A stretch of DNA of 64,000 nt from Candidatus Pacearchaeota archaeon (GCA_017608345.1 JAFCGA010000002.1:79023-143022); one strand, 5' to 3'; positions 3,640-45,016 are shown, counted from the first letter of the stretch. The notes: a model not told the origin generated them from the sequence alone. Made by a program: numbers and translations.

Positions 3640-6525
<2,886 letters not shown>

Positions 6526-6661: not shown

Positions 6662-6846
6662 TGGACCCGGAGGGATTTTCAAGCTACAAAGTTGCCGAAG
6701 GTATATTCGGAGCGACGAAGTCGCGTAGTAAAATACCTTTTCTTTGGGCTACCTTACACCTTTCTTTTTCTAAAAGAAAGGGGCAGTTTGAACCCCCAGC
6801 CTCCTGCATGCAAAGCAGGCGTTCTACCGGGTTGAACTACAGGCCC
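6662..6846 (-). tRNA. tRNA-Ala(UGC) in the 16S-23S spacer, with an inferred 111-nt insertion (about 6676-6786) in the T-loop
   Basis: The sense strand reads GGGCCTG TA GTTC..GAAC G CCTGC TT TGC AT GCAGG AGGCT GGGGG TTCAAA [111 nt] T CCCTC CGGGTCC A. The acceptor closes with the G3:U70 Ala identity pair. Confidence 0.8.
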
Positions 6847-6964
6847 ATAGTTTTAAGACAGATTGGTCGATTTATAAGGTTTTTCTTTGGGCCACTTATC
6901 GCGAACCGAAGTTCGCGATCTGTTCGTCCGCGTACGCTTGGAATTAGCGTACAAACATGAGTAT

Positions 6965-6981: not shown

Positions 6982-7653
6982 AACCTTCTTTGAGTATTAA
7001 TCAGGATACTTGCAAGCAAGTATCCTGATTTTAAAAGGAGGTGATCCATCTGCAGGTTCCCCTACAGATACCTTGTGTTGACTTCGCCCGCCTCGCTGAA
7101 CCAGGATTCGACTTAACCAAGAAGTTGAGCCTCATCCCAACCCAACTCGGTTGGCGTGACAGGCAGTGTGTGCAAGGGCCAGGGACACATTCACCGCACG
7201 ATGCTAACGCACGATTACTAGGGATTTCGTTTTCACGAGGGTGAGTTGCAACCCTCGATTCGAAAAGATTGAATTTAAGGGATTGGCTTCTCCTTTCGGA
7301 GTTGCAGCCCGTTGTTTCAACCATTGCTTGCCGCGTGTAGCCCAGAGGATTCGAGGCATACTGACCTACCGTAGCCTACACCTTCCTCTCCCTTTCGAGA
7401 GCAGTCCCTTCAGTGTGCTTATTCTCAATGAGAATAGTGGCAACTGAAAGCGTAGGTCTCGCTCGTTGTCTGACTTAACAGAACACCTCACGGCACGAGC
7501 TGACGGCGGCCATGCACCATCTCTCAGCGCGTCGAGTGAGCCATTCAGGCTGACCTTCATTCTGCTGTCGCTTCTGGTAAGGTTCCGGGCGTATAATCCA
7601 ATTGAACCGCAGCACCCACCCCTTGTGGTAGCCCCCCGCCAATTCCTTTAAGT

Positions 7654-7698
7654 ATACTGTAGCTACATTTCTCTAATATTTGTAAGAAAATATAGCAA
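7654..7698 (-). other. 16S insertion 1 (45 nt, putative intron) splitting GGCTGAA | ACTTAAAGGAATTGG
   Basis: The conserved block is contiguous in ordinary archaeal 16S but interrupted here. Boundary is +/-2 nt. Confidence 0.7.
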
Positions 7699-7817
7699 TT
7701 CAGCCTTGCGACCGTACTCCCCAGGTGGCCTGCTTAACGACTTCTCTCCGACACTGCATGCTCACGAAGAACATGCAGCACCTAGCAGGCAGCGTTTACG
7801 GCTAGGACTACGAGGGT

Positions 7818-7882
7818 TATTAGGGCTCTGGAAAATAGTTTTCTTTTTCCAGGGTTTTTCTTTTTAAAAAAAGAAAAAGCCT
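7818..7882 (-). other. 16S insertion 2 (65 nt, putative intron) splitting GGATTAGAT | ACCCTCGTAGTCC
   Basis: The interrupted block is the 785-806 'universal primer' region. The insert folds into two hairpins: TTTTTCTTTTT/AAAAAGAAAAA and CTGGAAAA/TTTTCCAG. Confidence 0.75.
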
Positions 7883-7980
7883 ATCTAATCCTCTTTGATC
7901 CCCTAGCTTTCATCCCTGACCGTCAGACCCGTTCTAGTTAGACGCCTTCGCCGCTGGCGGTCCTCTGGGGATTAAAACAA

Positions 7981-8071
7981 TGTAACTGCACTTTTTCGCT
8001 GCTTTGCAGCAAGTAAAGTAGTTTCTTTTGGGCTACCTTACACCTTTTCTTTCCTAAAGAAAAGGGGCAGT
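7981..8071 (-). other. 16S insertion 3 (about 91 nt, putative intron) splitting GAGCGGTAAAA | TTGTTTTAATCCCCAGAGGACC
   Basis: It interrupts the conserved GGTAAAATCCTGTAATCC-type block and carries a module shared with the tRNA-Ala insertion. Confidence 0.7.
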
Positions 8072-8235
8072 TTTTACCGCTCCCCCCAGAATACCTCTAA
8101 CTCCTCCCGGTCTCAAGCTAAGCAGTATTTTCAGCACGCCTGACAGTTGAGCTGCCAGATTTCACTAAAGACTTACTTAGCCGGCTACGGATGCTTTAGA
8201 CCCAATAAACGTGACCACCACTAAGGGCGCCGGGA

Positions 8236-8266
<31 letters not shown>

Positions 8267-8729
8267 CCCTTTATTCCTGAAGCGTTTTGGACTCCAGAAA
8301 AGCAGACGCAAAAAGCGCCTGCACGTAGGATTCCCCCATCACGCTTGCGCGCATTGTGGAGTATTCAGAACTGCTGCACCCCGTAGGGCTGGGAGCCTTA
8401 TCTCAGTCTCCCTCTCAGGGCTAGGACTCTCATCCCCCTTACAGATCTTAGGTTTGGTGAGCCGTTACCTCACCAACAGCCTAATCTGCCGCCAACTCAT
8501 CCTATGGCGCCGAAGCTTTGGATAAAAGCGCATTCCAGCCTCTTTTATCTATCGGGAATTATCTTCAGTTTCCCGAAGTTATGCCCGACCATAGGGTAGA
8601 TTATTGACGTGTTACTGAGCCTTTCGCCATGATTTCTCATAGACTTGCATGTCTCATGGATCCTACTAGCAGTGGTCTCCCGCAGGATAAACGGGAATTG
8701 TGATCGCATTAAAATAGAATTGGCTATTA

Positions 8730-10498: not shown

Positions 10499-10641
10499 TG
10501 CAGGGGACAGGGTTCGAACCTGCGTAGGCACTAAGCCACTGGGTCCTAAACCCAGCCCGTTCAATCGCAACCAACGCTAAGCTATCTTCTTTCCGCCAGC
10601 GCTTTCTTAAAGGGCTGCTTTGACCACTCCGGCACCCCTGC
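10499..10641 (-). tRNA. tRNA-Leu(UAG) with an inferred 57-nt insertion (about 10561-10617) in the D-loop
   Basis: GCAGGGG TG CCG GAGTGGTCAAAG [57 nt] A CGG G CTGGG TT TAG GA CCCAG, followed by a long variable arm, GCAGG TTCGAAC CCTGT CCCCTGC A. Confidence 0.75.
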
Positions 10642-33164: not shown

Positions 33165-33796
33165 TGGCGTTTAAGGGAAGTTTCCAAGCATATGATAGCA
33201 AAACAATGGCAAAAGTAGTTGGGACTCACCTTCCGATTTCCTCAAAAAACTCACGCGAAATAGCTAGAGTGATTGCAGGCATGAATCTAGATGCTGCGAT
33301 TAAATACCTCGAGGATGTAATGGACAAGAAGCGTGCAGTTCCATACAAGCGATATAATCGAGATACTCCGCATCGAAAAGGAAATGGTTTCGGAGCAGGC
33401 AGATTTCCAAATAAGTCAAGCATGTTCATCATTAATTTACTAAAATCCTTAAAGGCAAACGCTTCAGATAAATCGCTTGATTCAGATAATCTGCAAATCG
33501 TTCACGTTGCAGCACAGCGAGGATCAGTTTTATGGCACTATGGGCGATTGAGAGGTCGGAGAAGAAAATGTACTCACTTCGAAGCCATTGCTAAAGCAAT
33601 AGATAAACCAAAAAAAGACGTAAAGACGATGGATAAGAAAGCAATTCCGAAAGAGATAAAGGAAAAGGTTAGTCCGGAAGTTAAAGTGGAAAAACCAGCA
33701 CAGAAAAAAGAAGAAATTAAGGTTGCGGCACCGAAAGTTGAGAATAAACCAGCGCTAAAGAAAAAAGAAAACGCTACAGTGGAGAATAAAAAATGA
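33164..33796 (+). CDS. rpl22: 50S ribosomal protein L22 (uL22) with a K/E-rich C-terminal tail
   Basis: Core matches archaeal L22 (..SSKNSREIARVIAGM..); about 65 extra low-complexity residues. Confidence 0.9.
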   Translation: MAFKGSFQAYDSKTMAKVVGTHLPISSKNSREIARVIAGMNLDAAIKYLEDVMDKKRAVPYKRYNRDTPHRKGNGFGAGRFPNKSSMFIINLLKSLKANASDKSLDSDNLQIVHVAAQRGSVLWHYGRLRGRRRKCTHFEAIAKAIDKPKKDVKTMDKKAIPKEIKEKVSPEVKVEKPAQKKEEIKVAAPKVENKPALKKKENATVENKK

Positions 33797-34623
33797 TTGA
33801 GCGAGAATTTATCAAAAACAAAGTCCGGGATCTTAATATACAGAAGGAAATCGGATTCATCGTCAAGAAGAATGCAAGTATAGGTAGTATTATTGTTGAA
33901 AAAACACCATTGAGCGAGACTATAACTATTGATGCAGTTAGACCCGGAATAATAATCGGTAGACGCGGAGAAGTAATAAAGAGGATAACTTCGGAGATTA
34001 AGCGTAAATATAAGTTAGATAATCCTCAGATTAAAGTTCGAGAAATCGCACAGCCATTCTTAAACGCACGAGCAGTAGCAGAGAGAATTGCATCGACTCT
34101 GGAACGATTCGGGTCAGCTAGATTCAAGTCAACAGGACACAGATCTGTTTCCTCGATCTTGTCTGCAGGTGCGTTGGGTGCAGAAATCATACTTTCAGGT
34201 AAATTGCCAGGTAAGCGAGCAAGATCTTGGCGATTTTATGATGGGTACATGAAGAAATGCGGTGAGATTTCAGATGTTTATGTTGATAAGGCAATAGAAT
34301 ATGCTACCCTCCCTTCAGGAGTTATCGGGATAAAGGTTAGCATAATGCGAGAAGATGTTCCGCTTCCAGATAAAATTACTATTTTCGAGCCGAAAGAAAG
34401 CGTAGAAGAAATACCTAAAATCGCTATCAAGGCTGCTGAAAAAACCGAAACTAAGCTAGCGGCCGCTGAACAAATAAAAAAATCAGAAGCGGCGACAGTA
34501 AATGCGGAACCCGCTAAAAAAGCAGTAGTTGTCAAGAAAACTGTAGCTAAGAAAGAAAGTAGTTCGAAATTAAAAGTAATTATCAGTAAAGCAACTACGG
34601 AAAAGGAAACCAAAAAGAAGTAA
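33793..34623 (+). CDS. rps3: 30S ribosomal protein S3 (uS3) with a K/A-rich C-terminal tail
   Basis: KH domain ..GIIIGRRGEVIKRI..; position. Confidence 0.95.
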   Translation: MIEREFIKNKVRDLNIQKEIGFIVKKNASIGSIIVEKTPLSETITIDAVRPGIIIGRRGEVIKRITSEIKRKYKLDNPQIKVREIAQPFLNARAVAERIASTLERFGSARFKSTGHRSVSSILSAGALGAEIILSGKLPGKRARSWRFYDGYMKKCGEISDVYVDKAIEYATLPSGVIGIKVSIMREDVPLPDKITIFEPKESVEEIPKIAIKAAEKTETKLAAAEQIKKSEAATVNAEPAKKAVVVKKTVAKKESSSKLKVIISKATTEKETKKK

Positions 34624-35158: not shown

Positions 35159-35422
35159 ATGATAACACCACAAACTATAATTCGACACGAGCTAATCGGA
35201 TTGCGGGCTGAAGTCAAGCAAGCAAAAAACAAAGCCGCGATCGGAATTCGAGGCGTGATCACCGATGAAACTCAGAATACGCTTGAGGTCGAAGGTAAGA
35301 AAGTGTTCAAGGCAGGCTCTGAATTCCAAGTAGAGCTGCCAAATAAAGTGAAAGTATTGGTCGCTGGAGATAACCTCAAAATGCGACCTTGGGAACGGAT
35401 TAAAAAACGGAGAAATGGTTGA
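35159..35422 (+). CDS. rnp1: RNase P protein component 1 (Rpp29/Pop4)
   Basis: HELIGLRAEV..IGIRGVITDETQNTLEV; canonical position before S17. Confidence 0.85.
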   Translation: MITPQTIIRHELIGLRAEVKQAKNKAAIGIRGVITDETQNTLEVEGKKVFKAGSEFQVELPNKVKVLVAGDNLKMRPWERIKKRRNG

Positions 35423-35879
35423 AGCAAAGAAAACAAAATCAAAAGTCGAGAAGAAAACAGCTAGCCCTGCTAAGCCAAAGGTACAAAAGAAACCTGCTGA
35501 AGCGAAACCAAACGCAGTAGCTAAGAAAGCTACGGTGCCGAAAGTGGCTAAAAAATCAGCAAAAGTAGTAATTCCAAAAGCTCCTGAGACGGAAGGAGTA
35601 TGCGAAGATAGGCACTGCGCAGTTCACAAGCATATGAGCGTACGCGGTAGAGTGTTCATTGGAACTGTAATTAAAGATAAAATGAATAAATCAATTGTTG
35701 TTGAGTGGCCACGAAGGGTCTTAATTAGAAAATATGAGCGGTATGCGAAAAAGCGCTCTCGAGTTTCAGCTCACAATCCTAAATGTATTACTGCTAAGGT
35801 CGGCGACCGAGTAAAAATCGCTGAATGTAGACCAATTTCAAAGACTAAGAAATTTGTAGTTGTGGAGGTGCTGAAATGA
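35415..35879 (+). CDS. rps17: 30S ribosomal protein S17 (uS17) with a roughly 55-aa K/A/P-rich N-terminal extension
   Basis: Core ..VRGRVFIGTVIKDKMNKSIVVEW... Confidence 0.9.
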   Translation: MVEAKKTKSKVEKKTASPAKPKVQKKPAEAKPNAVAKKATVPKVAKKSAKVVIPKAPETEGVCEDRHCAVHKHMSVRGRVFIGTVIKDKMNKSIVVEWPRRVLIRKYERYAKKRSRVSAHNPKCITAKVGDRVKIAECRPISKTKKFVVVEVLK

Positions 35880-36232
35880 GCCCGTTCAAATATGATCCTG
35901 TTGAAGTAGCAAGATTAGACGCAGAACGCTGGAAAGCGATAGATGATAAGAATATAGAAAATATTATAGCGGTTGCTACTAAGTTTTACACGGCTCGTTA
36001 TGGTATTTCTGAGAAATCTGCATCAGAACTAACTAATATTCGAACTGAAGCAGCAATGTGCAGAAGAAATGAAAATTATGATGGCGCAGCAGAGCATCTG
36101 ATTCGATTTTATACTCAATTACAAGAGATAATGAGAAAATCAGGAGAAGAAAATGCTACAGGCGTACGAGCTACAGAGTTAGTTGGTAGGATGAATCAAG
36201 CTGAGAAACATTACAGAGATCTTGAAAGATGA
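35876..36232 (+). CDS. Hypothetical 118-aa non-basic protein inserted between S17 and L14
   Basis: ATGA overlaps at both ends. Predicted all-helical, with no ribosomal protein signature. Confidence 0.6.
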   Translation: MSPFKYDPVEVARLDAERWKAIDDKNIENIIAVATKFYTARYGISEKSASELTNIRTEAAMCRRNENYDGAAEHLIRFYTQLQEIMRKSGEENATGVRATELVGRMNQAEKHYRDLER

Positions 36233-36633
36233 AAGCAATAAAATCAAAAGTATCCAAAGGGCTCCCAATAGGAGCTTACGTGAATGTTGTAGATAATTCT
36301 GGAGCTAGAATTATGCAAGTAGTTAGCGTAAGAGGATACAAGACAAGAACAAGAAAGCTAGCTGAGGCAGGTGTTGGAGATAGAATTACTGCAGCTGTAA
36401 CTTCAGGGAAGCCAGATATTAAGCACAAAGTTGTGCACGCAGTAATTGTTCGGCAGAGAAAGCCGTACCATCGCCCAGACGGCACGCGAGTAAAGTTCGA
36501 AGATAATGCAGGAATCATACTCAAAGATATCAAATTAGGTATGCCCAAAGGAACAGTAATAAAGGGTCCAATAGCAAAGGAGGTAGCAGTCCGCTGGGCT
36601 AATGTAGCTAAGATTGCTAGTATGGTATTATGA
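36229..36633 (+). CDS. rpl14: 50S ribosomal protein L14 (uL14)
   Basis: ..VVDNSGARIMQVVSV... Confidence 0.95.
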   Translation: MKAIKSKVSKGLPIGAYVNVVDNSGARIMQVVSVRGYKTRTRKLAEAGVGDRITAAVTSGKPDIKHKVVHAVIVRQRKPYHRPDGTRVKFEDNAGIILKDIKLGMPKGTVIKGPIAKEVAVRWANVAKIASMVL

Positions 36634-36944
36634 CAGAGATGAGACTAACTGCTGACGACTTTCCTGGAAAGAAGAGGAGTGAGCCAATTAACACAGATGA
36701 ACTAATGAGTGAAATTGGTCGTAAATGCGAATTATTGTTTAACAATGACGAATTAGAGCAAGTCAAAGCAGGCAACAGCGGAAAGATCGGGATCTATGGT
36801 ATGAATCGGCATACCTTAGAGATTGCAAGAATAGCTATTGTCGATACGGATATAGATTGCCTTGATTTCAAGACCGCTGAACCATGGGAAAGAGTATATT
36901 GCCAAACATTTGGTGACCGAAGATATGGGGGCACAGTAAATTAG
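36630..36944 (+). CDS. Hypothetical 104-aa acidic protein inserted between L14 and L24
   Basis: ATGA overlap with the L14 stop. Its own stop abuts the L24 ATG directly. Confidence 0.6.
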   Translation: MTEMRLTADDFPGKKRSEPINTDELMSEIGRKCELLFNNDELEQVKAGNSGKIGIYGMNRHTLEIARIAIVDTDIDCLDFKTAEPWERVYCQTFGDRRYGGTVN

Positions 36945-37346
36945 ATGAGAAAGAAATTCAGTCTGAGCTGGAATAGCTCAAAACAGCCCAGGAAACAACG
37001 CAAATACAAATTCAACGCTCCGCTGCACATCAGACACAAGCTAATGGCAGCTCATTTATCAGAAGAGCTAAGGAAAAAGCACAAGAAGAGAAGCTTTCCA
37101 GTTAGAAAAAAGGACAAAGTCAAGATCCTACGGGGTCAATTCAAGGGAATCATGGGAGAAATCGAAGAAGTTAACCTTAAAAAGTACAAAGTTTACGTAA
37201 AAGGAGCTGAAATCGATAGAGGCGAAGGAAGAAAGATAAGATATCCAATATCCCCTTCAAATTTAATCATACTCACATTGAATTTAGACGATAAGCGTAG
37301 AAAAGCTGCACTTGAGCGAAGTAATTCGAAGGAGGAAAAGAAATGA
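36945..37346 (+). CDS. rpl24: 50S ribosomal protein L24 (uL24)
   Basis: KOW motif ..VRKKDKVKILRGQFKG.. Confidence 0.9.
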   Translation: MRKKFSLSWNSSKQPRKQRKYKFNAPLHIRHKLMAAHLSEELRKKHKKRSFPVRKKDKVKILRGQFKGIMGEIEEVNLKKYKVYVKGAEIDRGEGRKIRYPISPSNLIILTLNLDDKRRKAALERSNSKEEKK

Positions 37347-38056
37347 GCAAAAAGCAACACCTAAGTAGGCTAGCAGCGCCGAAAAGCTGGCCAATAAAGC
37401 GAAAAGGAATCAAGTGGGTAGCGAAGCCTACTCCCGGCCCGCATAAATTGCAAGACTCAATGCCGCTTGTCGTAGTACTGCGAGAAATATTAAAAGTAAC
37501 TAAGGATTCAAAAGAAGTAAAATATCTTGTGAGAAATAAGGAAATATTAGTTAATAGTCGGGTTGTTAGAGATATAAAATTAAGTGTTGGATTATTCGAT
37601 ATAATTTCGCTATCTAAGTTAAAACTGCATTACCGAATGGTATTGAGCAAGAATGGTAAGTTTAGATTAATTGAAATCCCTGAGAAAGAATCCGCTTCAG
37701 TGCCGCTTAAAGTAGATAATAAAGTAAGTCTCGGAAAAGATAAGATTCAGATTAATTTTACTAACGGCTGGAACCTTATATCTAAAGAAAAAATTAAGGT
37801 TGGCGATTCAGTTTTGTTTAATGCTAGCACAAACAAGATCGATGCTAAATTACCTTCGGATAAAGGTGTTACAGCATATGTTACTGGCGGTAGACACAGC
37901 GGAGTCGTTGGTAATATTGCAGATGTTCAAAGTATTGGCGAATTCAAGAAGCGAAAGATTGTTTCGATTGCCGTATCTAAAGATGAGACAATAGCTACTG
38001 ATTCTTCACATATATTTATTGTTGGAGGCGCTAAGGCTGCGATTAAAGTAGAATGA
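37343..38056 (+). CDS. rps4e: 30S ribosomal protein S4e
   Basis: MSKKQHLSRLAAPKSWPIKRKG.. Confidence 0.95.
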   Translation: MSKKQHLSRLAAPKSWPIKRKGIKWVAKPTPGPHKLQDSMPLVVVLREILKVTKDSKEVKYLVRNKEILVNSRVVRDIKLSVGLFDIISLSKLKLHYRMVLSKNGKFRLIEIPEKESASVPLKVDNKVSLGKDKIQINFTNGWNLISKEKIKVGDSVLFNASTNKIDAKLPSDKGVTAYVTGGRHSGVVGNIADVQSIGEFKKRKIVSIAVSKDETIATDSSHIFIVGGAKAAIKVE

Positions 38057-39331: not shown

Positions 39332-39854
39332 GCTCGAATTACCTGAAGGATATGAAGCAAAGGTTGAAGCTAGCCAGATATCTATCAAAAAGGAGAATAG
39401 CGAGTTAGTAAGGCGATTTCCAGCTCAGAAAATGGCTATTCGAGTTGAAAACAAAAAGATAATTATCGACTTAAAATTTAAAGATGCTAAGACCCGCGCG
39501 CTTCTTGGCACGTTTAAAGCACATATTAAAAATATGCTTGCGGGATTAAAGGAAGAATTTGTGTACAAGCTAAAGATTTGTTCAGTTCACTTCCCGATGA
39601 ATGTGCAGGTTAAAGGTAATGAACTGTCAATTAATAATTTCATTGGTGGTAAGAAAGCGCGCAATATTAAGATACCTCCTAGTGTAGATATTAGTGTTAA
39701 GGGTAATGATATTTTAGTAAAATCAAGAGACATTGAGCTAGCAGGAATGGCAGCCGCCAGGATTGAACAAATTACAAGGTTATCTAAGAAGGATCGGAGA
39801 GTCTTTCAAGATGGAATATTTATGGTAGAAAAAGCTGGGAAGGTAATTCGATGA
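39321..39854 (+). CDS. rpl6: 50S ribosomal protein L6 (uL6)
   Basis: Position and two-domain L6 pattern. Confidence 0.9.
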   Translation: MSTELELPEGYEAKVEASQISIKKENSELVRRFPAQKMAIRVENKKIIIDLKFKDAKTRALLGTFKAHIKNMLAGLKEEFVYKLKICSVHFPMNVQVKGNELSINNFIGGKKARNIKIPPSVDISVKGNDILVKSRDIELAGMAAARIEQITRLSKKDRRVFQDGIFMVEKAGKVIR

Positions 39855-40609
39855 CTGACTTAAAACAAAAGCTCGCTGAGCGCAAGAAATTGAAGAAAAA
39901 GACACCAACTTTCGCTAGACAGGAAGCTCATGTTAGAAAAAGATTGCCTAGCTCTTGGAGAAAACCACGAGGAGTTCACTCGAAAATGCGCAGAGGGAGA
40001 GCAGGAAAGCACGCAGTAGTTAAAATTGGATATGGTGGCCCCACTGAAGTCAGAGGGCTAACAAAAGAAGGTTTAGTGTCAATAACAGTTAGCACAGCAA
40101 AGGATCTTGCGATGATTACTGGAAAAGCAGCGATTTTATCTAGCACTATTGGGCGCAGGAAGAAATTGCAGATATTAGAAGCTGCAAAGAAGTCAAATAT
40201 ATCTTTTCAGAATGTCAAAGACGTAGCTGCCGAGATAATTAAACTCAAAACCGCTGTTGATAAGCAGAAGCTCGAAAAGAAAAAGCGATTCGAATCTAAG
40301 AAGAAAAAGAGGAAGCTATTCGCGAAGAAAGAAAAGAAAGACGACAAGAAACTTGAGAAAGAAGAGACGAAAGCAGAAGAGAAATCGCCTGAAAGTAAAG
40401 AGCAGAAACCCGCGGAGAAAAAGCAGGAAGCTAAACCTTTAGATGCCGTAAAGAAGACAGAGAGTAAGGAAAAGAGACCTGTAGAAAAGAAGCCGGAACC
40501 AAAAGTTGAGGCACCGAAAGTCGAGAAGAAGCAGCAAAAGCCTGCTGGAAAAGTATTAGAATCAAAACCAAAGAAGGTAGTTCCAAAAGTCGAGGAGAAA
40601 CGCCAGTGA
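39851..40609 (+). CDS. rpl32e: 50S ribosomal protein L32e with a roughly 125-aa K/E-rich C-terminal tail
   Basis: ..FARQEAHVRKRLPSSWRKPRG.HSKMR.. core. Confidence 0.9.
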   Translation: MTDLKQKLAERKKLKKKTPTFARQEAHVRKRLPSSWRKPRGVHSKMRRGRAGKHAVVKIGYGGPTEVRGLTKEGLVSITVSTAKDLAMITGKAAILSSTIGRRKKLQILEAAKKSNISFQNVKDVAAEIIKLKTAVDKQKLEKKKRFESKKKKRKLFAKKEKKDDKKLEKEETKAEEKSPESKEQKPAEKKQEAKPLDAVKKTESKEKRPVEKKPEPKVEAPKVEKKQQKPAGKVLESKPKKVVPKVEEKRQ

Positions 40610-42835: not shown

Positions 42836-43231
42836 ATGGCAGATATAATTGCAGAGGTAATAGTCTCAAATATAGATACGGATTATCTTAGGATGTGTAT
42901 ATTAAGTGGAGAATCTAGCTCCGCAACGCTAGCTGATAAGAAGCAGACAGAGTTAGAAGGAATACGAAGATTTGTCCCCGCACTAGAGTCTCTCAGAGAT
43001 AAATTGGATCTAGATTTTGATATCTTTGCGCATAAGCGGAGCTGGGATGGCCAGATTTTTTTGTATTTAGGAGAACGTACATATTCAGATAGACCTTATA
43101 TGAATAGCCGATGGCATACAGCGATCACCACAGCTAGTCCGCTTTCTGAGCAAATATCTCTAGATGTTCAATCTACAATTGCTCAACAATTTGTTGACGC
43201 AGTAGAGAACTATAAAGCAGAGAATAATTAA
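42836..43231 (+). CDS. Hypothetical 131-aa acidic protein inserted between L30 and L15
   Basis: 1-nt spacers on both sides. No ribosomal protein signature. Confidence 0.6.
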   Translation: MADIIAEVIVSNIDTDYLRMCILSGESSSATLADKKQTELEGIRRFVPALESLRDKLDLDFDIFAHKRSWDGQIFLYLGERTYSDRPYMNSRWHTAITTASPLSEQISLDVQSTIAQQFVDAVENYKAENN

Positions 43232-43622: not shown

Positions 43623-45016
43623 TGGTCGACTGGAAAAAGATAGTAGAGTCTTTTCCTGAAGTAGATAGGCCTAAAACAAAGAAACTTGGCTTTAACGCAA
43701 AACTCAAGTGGACAGGTATTGTCCTTTTATTATATTTTCTCTTACTTCATATTCCCTTGCATGGTTTGGGGGCTAATGCTCTTGAGCAATTCGAGTATCT
43801 TTCTATTATTCTTGGAGCGAGTTTTGGTTCAATAATCTCTTTAGGTATTGGACCTATCGTAACAGCGTCTATTGTTCTGCAATTATTAATGGGCTCGGGC
43901 ATGCTTAATCTCGATATGAACACGCACGAAGGCAAAATCAAGTTCCAAGCTCTGCAAAAAATCGCAACCATCGCGTTCATAATTTTCGAAGCAATAGTTT
44001 ACGTTTTCATGGGTGGTCTCGCACCAGCACCGGAACTGGCAGGAACATCTGTTTTCTTGTATATTCAGATTGGATTAGTGATTCAGCTAGCTATTGGCGG
44101 TTATATGCTCGTGCTTATGGATGAAATTATAACTAAATGGGGCTTTGGTTCAGGAGTTTCACTATTTATTGCGGGTGGAGTTTCAAGACAAATATTTATT
44201 TCTGCGCTGAATTGGCTACCTTCGCCGACAAATCCAAATGTACCGGTCGGTAGAATTCCTTTTTTAATTCAAGCTTTAGGGCAAGGAGATCCGTTAGGTG
44301 CATTGATTGCGATTATAGCCATAGTTGCTACTATCGTCGTTTTCTTGCTCTGCGTATATGGGCAGGCTATGAAAGTAGAGATACCGCTCTCCTTTGGTAG
44401 AGTGAGAGGGTATGGTATGCGATGGCCGCTTAAATTCATGTACACTTCTAATATTCCCGTTATACTTATTGCTGCACTGATGGCGAATATCCAGCTATGG
44501 GCTAGACTGTTGCAGAACTGGGGGCACCCGATATTAGGCACTTTTTCAGGTAATGCTCCTGCTACCGGGCTTGTAAAATGGATAGCATCTCCAGATATTG
44601 TAAGATCTTTAGTTGTAGGTGCTGCTACCGGAGAAATGGTCATCCAAGCTGTTGTTTATACTGCGCTGATGGTCGGTGGAGCAATCTTATTCTCGGTTCT
44701 GTGGGTAAAAACCGCTAACATGGACGCTAAGGCTCAAGCTAAGCAGATTCTAGCTTCGGGATTGCAAGTTCCGGGATTTAGAAGAGATCCTAGAATTTTA
44801 GAGTCGGTACTTAATCGATATATTCCTGGTTTAACGATTATGGGTGGAGCACTAGTTGGTTTGCTAGCAGCAGTGGCAGATCTATCTGGCGCATTAAGCC
44901 GAGGTACAGGTATTTTACTTACAGTTATGATTGTGTATAAGCTATTCGAGGATATTTCTAGACAGCATGCGTATGATATGCATCCTGCATTACGTAAGTT
45001 CATGAGTCCCGAATAG
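43622..45016 (+). CDS. secY: Preprotein translocase subunit SecY
   Basis: 10-TM SecY pattern and its position after L15. Confidence 0.95.
   Translation: MVDWKKIVESFPEVDRPKTKKLGFNAKLKWTGIVLLLYFLLLHIPLHGLGANALEQFEYLSIILGASFGSIISLGIGPIVTASIVLQLLMGSGMLNLDMNTHEGKIKFQALQKIATIAFIIFEAIVYVFMGGLAPAPELAGTSVFLYIQIGLVIQLAIGGYMLVLMDEIITKWGFGSGVSLFIAGGVSRQIFISALNWLPSPTNPNVPVGRIPFLIQALGQGDPLGALIAIIAIVATIVVFLLCVYGQAMKVEIPLSFGRVRGYGMRWPLKFMYTSNIPVILIAALMANIQLWARLLQNWGHPILGTFSGNAPATGLVKWIASPDIVRSLVVGAATGEMVIQAVVYTALMVGGAILFSVLWVKTANMDAKAQAKQILASGLQVPGFRRDPRILESVLNRYIPGLTIMGGALVGLLAAVADLSGALSRGTGILLTVMIVYKLFEDISRQHAYDMHPALRKFMSPE

Follow-up and report, generated by a model that had tools for sequence, protein, structure and literature searches.

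Why should a reading frame that resembles no ribosomal protein be lodged between the genes for uS17 and uL14, within S17-L14-L24, a gene order that ranks among the most rigid found in archaea? The question is raised by a stretch of 64,000 nucleotides from Candidatus Pacearchaeota archaeon (GCA_017608345.1, JAFCGA010000002.1:79023-143022), hereafter called the window. The S10-spc ribosomal cluster runs there in the canonical archaeal order on the + strand, from L3 at 30056 to SecY at 45016. The best match of the L14 protein is found in a Candidatus Woesearchaeota MAG (71% identity), and the host organism is a Woesearchaeota-like DPANN archaeon. Hosts of this gene are genome-reduced, symbiotic DPANN archaea, and the DPANN translation apparatus is, to our knowledge, known from sequence only.

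The S17-L14 junction in the window and in other archaea

An earlier note on the window had described a frame of 118 aa between S17 and L14, joined to each neighbour by an ATGA overlap. The frame, here called ORF1, is confirmed at 35876..36232 (+ strand). The uS17 gene (35415..35879, +; 154 aa; Pfam Ribosomal_S17, E 2.7e-26) has its stop in the ATGA at 35876..35879 (+), which also holds the start of ORF1. In turn, the ORF1 stop and the start of the uL14 gene (36229..36633, +; 134 aa; Pfam Ribosomal_L14, E 2.6e-33) share the ATGA at 36229..36232 (+). The N-terminus of the ORF1 protein reads MSPFKYDPVEVARLDAERWKAIDDKNIENII. A Shine-Dalgarno sequence, GGAGGTG, is located within the last S17 codons (35864..35870, +), 5 nt upstream of the ORF1 ATG. 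It is a perfect match of 7 nt, complementary to the 16S 3' end encoded in the window itself (...GGATCACCTCCT, also given as ...GATCACCTCCT); nine junctions were inspected, and no other Shine-Dalgarno among them is as strong. From the overlaps at both ends and the strong Shine-Dalgarno we naturally infer that ORF1 is co-transcribed with S17 and L14 and translationally coupled to them. For the same reasons the product would be made from the ribosomal protein mRNA, in roughly ribosomal protein amounts.

The codon usage of ORF1 is native. The gene has a CAI of 0.81 when the ribosomal protein genes of the window are taken as reference, against 0.69-0.78 for those genes themselves, and the resemblance to the neighbours that the earlier note had perceived is thereby borne out; GC3 is somewhat low (0.22 versus 0.25-0.42 in the ribosomal protein genes). 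No direct or inverted repeats were detected at the borders of ORF1 by a repeat scan, and an Rfam scan of the region 35300..37400 at a permissive threshold returned a sub-threshold snoRNA-like match only, with none at the gathering score. On the strength of these two scans we rejected the notion that ORF1 represents an RNA element or goes back to a mobile insertion.

The junction was surveyed in a reference set of 58 loci fetched with L14, mostly from Micrarchaeota, with seven from Nanoarchaeota, Woesearchaeota and Pacearchaeota. The reference-genome scan gave only these seven Nanoarchaeota-like loci, and the phylogenetic survey is hence sparse. L14 directly follows S17 in all 58 loci, with a gap ranging from -4 to 66 nt in all of them save one, and published maps of the cluster, that of the DPANN genome AR10 included, display the same S17-L14-L24 order (PMC10833476). 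The adjacency is thus as conserved as had been claimed. No ORF1 homologue was found in the closest reference genomes retrieved, namely L001, L002, L003, L055 and L058.

The locus with the deviating gap is L003 (Candidatus Pacearchaeota JAFCGM010000002.1), in which S17 and L14 are 166 nt apart as the result of a short hairpin-repeat element. The repeat, about 41 nt long (CTGCTGTGGGTCCCTTCAGCAG...AAGGACA), occurs in five copies inside the ribosomal operon (2671-2711, 3884-3924, 3956-3996, 4824-4864 and 7933-7973). One insertion of about 170 bp resides exactly at the S17-L14 junction, bordered by the two copies of a perfect direct duplication of 26 nt (3810-3835 = 3980-4005), and another lengthens the L24 reading frame. 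The repeat is a MITE-like element tolerated in ribosomal protein genes.

Non-ribosomal genes within the archaeal S10-spc cluster are already known. They encode aIF1/SUI1, the RNase P protein Rpp29, SecY, adenylate kinase (Adk) and an EMC3/TMCO1-like protein (PMC10833476), and the window contains SUI1, Rpp29, SecY and the EMC3/TMCO1-like gene. ORF1 resembles these genes in being tightly packed and co-oriented with its neighbours, and some of them have roles in translation or RNA metabolism. Yet the known genes are near-universal in archaea and occupy other junctions, whereas ORF1 is confined to a few Woesearchaeota-like lineages, interrupts a junction that is otherwise invariant, and belongs to an undescribed family which has no solved structural relative.

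Orthologues, selection and descent

A word-indexed protein search with ORF1 as query matched ORF1 itself only, and an exact-sequence contig look-up returned no record. Homologues came to light only in an exhaustive phmmer search of 1.84 billion representatives. Two of them, P0005 (114 aa, E 2.6e-7) and P0006 (99 aa, E 8.8e-6), reside in the same slot as ORF1; two others, P0008 (E 8.5e-5) and P0009 (E 1.1e-4), are two-repeat proteins, to which we return below. P0005 is encoded on L062, an ENA contig of 13.5 kb, between S17 and L14 and downstream of the array L3...L29-SUI1-Rpp29-S17. P0006 is encoded on L063, a contig of 507 bp, where it is preceded by the end of S17 and followed by the start of L14. 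In the S17-L14 slot of L064, a JGI metagenome scan identified a fourth version, P0129 (100 aa); the metagenome scan with the archaeal alignment gave only one locus. P0129 was recovered on 14 contigs, and the occurrences examined derive from JGI, ENA and Logan assemblies; its lineage recurs in the samples ERZ27247707, ERZ27247694, SRR9617868 and JGI Ga0315291. On its 36-kb contig P0129 is the sole non-canonical gene between L3 and SecY. Orthologues occupy the same slot also on L071, L072 and L073. The synteny survey which the earlier note had proposed therefore places homologues between S17 and L14 in at least three other metagenomic lineages. ATGA overlaps are found at both ends of the gene in L062, L063 and L064, as in the window. 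Altogether, the archaeal form makes up four clusters at 90% identity among 5.8 billion proteins.

The orthologues have diverged considerably. P0005 and P0129 are 45% identical, each of them is 31-35% identical to the window protein, and identity among the orthologues ranges overall from 31 to 45%. The versions of L063 and L064 are separated by a dS of 0.75 and a dN of 0.094 (dN/dS 0.125), and the ORF1 homologues of these two loci are clearly under purifying selection. Many polar positions, namely D7, R18, D23, N26, E51, T53, R56, N65, H74, Y79, T80, Q83 and E84, do not vary among the archaeal versions, which would fit a specific binding surface rather than a mere scaffold.

These data bear on the view that ORF1 is not a gene at all, or is a recent selfish insertion, being a chance reading frame, a mobile cassette, a component of a toxin-antitoxin pair or an anti-defence gene. 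The lack of a match to any curated family and the absence from the nearest reference genomes speak in its favour, and the insertion in L003 is a real case of a repeat element settled at this very junction. It has to face the low dN/dS ratio, a match of 43.9 bits to a protein family profile and a confident structure model (both described below), as well as the native codon usage, the repeat-free borders, and the lack of PADLOC or PHROG matches and of a partner gene. As orthologues are conserved, this view is essentially refuted, and a chance frame or a selfish cassette, to which we assign a very low probability, is essentially excluded. ORF1 is almost certainly a genuine gene. The native codons, the absence of flanking repeats and RNA elements, and the presence of diverged orthologues in the identical slot also uphold the opinion, voiced in the earlier note, that it is no recent foreign cassette. 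According to the earlier note, absence from close relatives would refute the gene: it is absent from L001, L002, L003, L055 and L058, but intact, with the dN/dS of 0.125, in more distant relatives. Because it is intact and under purifying selection in the latter, the distribution is to be called patchy, and is not of the kind produced by spurious reading frames.

How did such a distribution arise? A neighbour-joining tree was built from six shared proteins (S3, L29, SUI1, Rpp29, S17 and L14; 723 columns) of eight Woesearchaeota-like lineages. The carriers L062 and L064 fall into one clade with the non-carriers L055 and L058 (100% bootstrap), the topology inside the clade being (L062,(L064,(L055,L058))), and the window is grouped with the non-carriers L001, L002 and L003 (58% bootstrap). 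The deepest split among the eight relatives sampled thus has carriers on either side, and the similarities among the ORF products, with P0005 and P0129 set apart from the window protein, match the ribosomal protein tree. Both facts suggest an old acquisition followed by losses. The simplest reading would be one insertion in the common ancestor of the eight lineages, vertical descent and at least two losses. In a sample as sparse as this one, transfer among archaea by recombination through the conserved flanking genes is a possible, less simple alternative. We consider it probable that ORF1 is an old, vertically inherited resident of the operon. It evolves faster than its neighbours, since ribosomal proteins encoded nearby are 53-61% identical across the same genomes, compared to the 31-45% of ORF1. 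The gene is dispensable, as the closest reference relatives live without it and it has been lost within the clade of L062 and L064.

Predicted fold and the two-repeat family

The ORF1 protein has a pI of 6.15 and a net charge of -1, against a pI of 10.4-10.7 for S17, L14 and L24, and is therefore not basic, as had been noted. It was also said to be all-helical, and the AlphaFold2 model agrees (mean pLDDT 84.9, pTM 0.73). Five helices are predicted, four of which (residues 8-23, 27-42, 46-64 and 68-88) form a four-helix domain spanning residues 3-89 (35882..36142, +). Residues 90-118 (36143..36229, +; pLDDT 55-76) form a linker of lower confidence that leads to a C-terminal helix (95-117). This region is specific to the window version, and is missing from P0005 and P0006.

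Scans of ORF1 and its homologues against Pfam, NCBIfam, PHROGs and PADLOC gave nothing significant, and PDB sequence searches, carried out once with the ORF1 sequence and once with the profile of the family, detected no significant match. In the structural comparison that the earlier note had suggested, the helical model found no significant neighbour by Foldseek in either PDB (best E 0.6, TM-scores up to 0.48) or BFVD. TPR domains in the Foldseek listing had E values of at least 1, and a Pfam TPR match was also lacking. By sequence, the description of ORF1 as non-ribosomal stands: no ribosomal protein family is matched, and the protein is near-neutral and helical. The sequence itself indicates a cytoplasmic, non-basic, helical product.

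P0008 and P0009 belong to a much larger set. A profile search retrieved more than 200 relatives (counted as 90%-identity clusters), mostly bacterial and nearly all 200-226 aa long, none of which carries a precomputed Pfam domain. Where the source names them, they are hypothetical proteins of bacterial MAGs, such as Sumerlaeia (P0079) and Lentisphaerae (P0080). Members of the family consist of a four-helix unit repeated twice in tandem, the first repeat starting with FDPxxVAxAETxMWQAYY and the second with FDPxxxARAELAWWVARR. The P0008 model (pLDDT 93.5, pTM 0.88) shows eight helices in two repeats. Foldseek returned no significant PDB neighbour for P0008 as well; the best E values of the two models are 0.6-0.7, with TM-scores below 0.5, and the weak matches of either are TPR-like, designed-repeat or vinculin-like helices. 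A hydrophobic segment preceded by net positive charge is found at the N-terminus of 67 of the 80 aligned members, three of which carry lipobox-like sites. The segment is a signal anchor, and should put the domain outside the cytoplasm.

The relationship of ORF1 to this family was assessed with a profile made of 59 other members, ORF1 being left out. By hmmsearch ORF1 scored 43.9 bits (E 2.4e-13), its residues 3-89 being aligned to HMM positions 29-118; P0005, P0006 and P0129 are matched as well, and no other ORF of the window is. ORF1 is very probably a member of the family, with its four-helix domain homologous to repeat 1. ORF1 and the family share the start motif FDPxxVAxxE..W, the end motif ..L..(F/Y)Y..L.. 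and a repeat of four helices. Differences are also evident. Members of the family carry two repeats (about 200 aa), ORF1 one repeat and a single extra helix; the AYY of the family is changed into AID in ORF1; most members are anchored, whereas ORF1, P0005, P0006 and P0129 begin directly with the repeat; and bacterial members are found in varied loci, in contrast to ORF1, which is archaeal and resides in a ribosomal operon. MAFFT places the YRDLER of ORF1 beneath the terminal Y..L motif of the family, and the C-terminal helix may be what is left of the final helix of the second repeat. ORF1 is thus a truncated offshoot, with one repeat and no anchor, of an uncharacterised family whose fold is unsolved. 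In bacteria the family is both large and varied, and the archaeal form amounts to four clusters only; the gene would more likely have passed from bacteria to archaea and been truncated afterwards.

The gene neighbourhoods of five anchored bacterial members have no partner in common, and include RecO, an SNF2 helicase, a protein kinase, CoA-transferase fragments and a malectin-domain protein. A subgroup of nine bacterial members lacks the anchor and represents the cytoplasmic form of the family. At four loci of this subgroup the same genes follow one another, DUF498, a class-A beta-lactamase-like gene, a GNAT gene and then the family gene; the arrangement of beta-lactamase-like gene, RimI-type gene and family gene was noted at 5429..6588 in L061, 1950..3931 in L068, 673..2654 in L069 and 2241..4272 in L070. 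The GNAT proteins score 95-110 bits on TIGR01575 (RimI, the ribosomal protein S18-alanine N-acetyltransferase), for which the cutoff is 86.4 bits. The next gene, in convergent orientation, encodes a class A penicillin-binding protein (checked with Pfam in L061 and L069). The beta-lactamase-like, RimI-type and family genes form a possible functional module of the bacterial family. The RimI neighbourhood would be a second, weak link to the handling of ribosomal proteins; the loci come from related organisms, probably a single lineage, so that together they are worth roughly one observation, and they speak as much for the cell wall.

Candidate roles of the ORF1 protein

The explanation which we slightly favour as a whole combines a genuine gene, an offshoot of the family, a resident of the operon and a translation-linked binding module. 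According to it, a single-repeat, anchor-less copy of the family would have been fixed between uS17 and uL14 in a Woesearchaeota-like DPANN ancestor, and would have been inherited vertically and lost in several descendants. Its product would be a cytoplasmic all-alpha protein, made of one four-helix repeat and a C-terminal helix, which serves the translation apparatus as a non-basic protein-binding module. The module might act as an accessory ribosome-associated factor, or as an escort or chaperone for fresh basic ribosomal proteins, for example uS17 and uL14, and would not be a structural, rRNA-binding ribosomal protein.

Of the components of this explanation, the functional one is tentative: we regard a function linked to translation or to the ribosome as a serious possibility that falls short of being probable. 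Several findings argue for it. The P0129 lineage hosts the ORF1 homologue as the only insertion of the operon from L3 to SecY; the archaeal versions keep the polar residues listed above invariant; the predicted fold is a helical hairpin array whose structural neighbours, all of them weak, include TPR-like peptide-binding domains; a RimI-type gene lies directly upstream of the family gene at the four anchor-less loci; and eukaryotes employ dedicated non-basic chaperones for uL14, Bcp1 being one (PMC11248248). The rarity of the gene, which is limited to the four clusters mentioned, its dispensability and the unrelated neighbourhoods of the anchored bacterial members argue against such a function, and the anchor, which indicates an extracytoplasmic domain in 67 of the 80 members, gives no hint of a ribosomal role in the ancestor. 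As for the escort role, no likeness to known ribosomal protein chaperones was found by PDB sequence searches or Foldseek. The narrower proposition that ORF1 is an unrecognised ribosome-associated protein of Woesearchaeota-type DPANN, be it an escort or an accessory or regulatory subunit, derived from a transferred and truncated bacterial family, is to be viewed as doubtful.

The same evidence accommodates another reading, nearly as likely as the translation-linked one, and possible to a similar degree. A fragment of a bacterial, probably envelope-associated family, having an unrelated cellular role, may have settled in the operon and gained strong constitutive expression there, with no role in translation, much as SecY, adenylate kinase and cytidylate kinase reside in the archaeal cluster. 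That the parent family is mostly membrane-anchored, with the domain facing outside, fits this reading, as do the varied, non-translational contexts of the anchored members and the vicinity of the anchor-less subgroup to a class A penicillin-binding protein and a beta-lactamase-like gene. Many relatives do without ORF1, the operon of the window tolerates two further orphan ORFs, and non-translation genes in the cluster are well known (PMC10833476). Yet the archaeal versions have no signal or anchor, and a bacterial role cannot simply carry over. DPANN archaea, as far as we know, have no peptidoglycan. It must moreover be reconciled with the retention of the exact slot and of both ATGA overlaps across 31-45% identity, and with the P0129 lineage, in which the whole operon has no other insertion.

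Could ORF1 be instead a new structural ribosomal protein, built into the ribosome of Woesearchaeota and peculiar to that lineage? Precedents exist among lineage-specific archaeal ribosomal proteins with novel folds: aL45, aL46 and aL47 of Sulfolobus are small, have novel folds and occur in only some of the archaea (PMC10516650). The conserved position of ORF1 in a ribosomal protein operon, and its apparent coupling at both sides, would agree with such a component. Nonetheless aL45-aL47 are proven constituents of the ribosome that contact rRNA, whereas ORF1 is not basic. The orthologues have a pI of 5.3-6.6, against more than 10 for the S17, L14 and L24 of the window; they are distributed patchily among relatives whose ribosomal proteins are otherwise similar, are less conserved than the neighbouring ribosomal proteins (31-45% versus 53-61% identity), and match no ribosomal protein family in Pfam, NCBIfam or PDB sequences. 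A structural ribosomal protein is, on balance, improbable.

The escort role has analogues in eukaryotes, where dedicated non-basic chaperones assist single ribosomal proteins, as Bcp1 does for uL14 and the TPR-like Acl4 for uL4 (PMC11248248). Chaperones of this class are small to medium in size, shield a specific basic ribosomal protein before assembly, and in some instances have a helical-repeat architecture (PMC11248248). The likeness of ORF1 to Bcp1 and Acl4 would concern the proposed mechanism only, as there is no similarity in sequence or fold. If the escort role were true, ORF1 would be the first dedicated ribosomal protein chaperone described in archaea, where we know of none.

Since the slot is rigid and both junctions have been kept across deep divergence, ORF1 is a strong candidate to be a hitherto overlooked participant in ribosome biology. 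Irrespective of function, an unannotated family has been defined which, having a confidently predicted all-alpha fold and no significant PDB match, presents a clean target for studies of structure and function. Were ORF1 no more than a foreign guest of the operon, the junction would still have been shown able to accept and retain foreign genes.

The two further orphan ORFs of the operon are specific to the window genome, and bring to three the number of small acidic or neutral ORFs it hosts. ORF2 (36630..36944, +; 104 aa; pI 4.9), located between L14 and L24, begins in an ATGA overlap with the L14 stop, and its own stop abuts the L24 ATG. No homologue of ORF2 was found among 5.8 billion proteins, nor a match in Pfam or NCBIfam, and it is absent from every relative examined. 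These include L064 and L071, which host an ORF1 homologue without ORF2; on this ground we rejected the idea of a cassette, made of ORF1 and ORF2, that frames L14. The third ORF (42836..43231, +; 131 aa; pI 4.6) lies between L30 (42367..42834) and L15 (43233..43622). It is a single-member cluster with no Pfam, PHROG or PADLOC match, and in the P0129 lineage L30 is followed directly by L15.

Some ribosomal proteins of the window are extended. S17 has an N-terminal extension of about 80 aa (35415..35660, +), and long C-terminal extensions are found in L32e (39851..40609, +) and S3 (33793..34623, +). These tails are rich in Lys, Ala, Glu and Pro and of low complexity, and are similar in L001, not in L055 or L058. 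Peculiarities are found in the rRNA region as well. The 16S rRNA match (7036..8698, -) spans 1663 nt against a model of 1478 positions, implying an insertion of about 185 nt. The length of a tRNA match at 10499..10641 (-), 143 nt, suggests a long intron; this tRNA was not called by ARAGORN. The tRNA-Ala of the 16S-23S spacer is 94 nt long according to ARAGORN (6754..6847).
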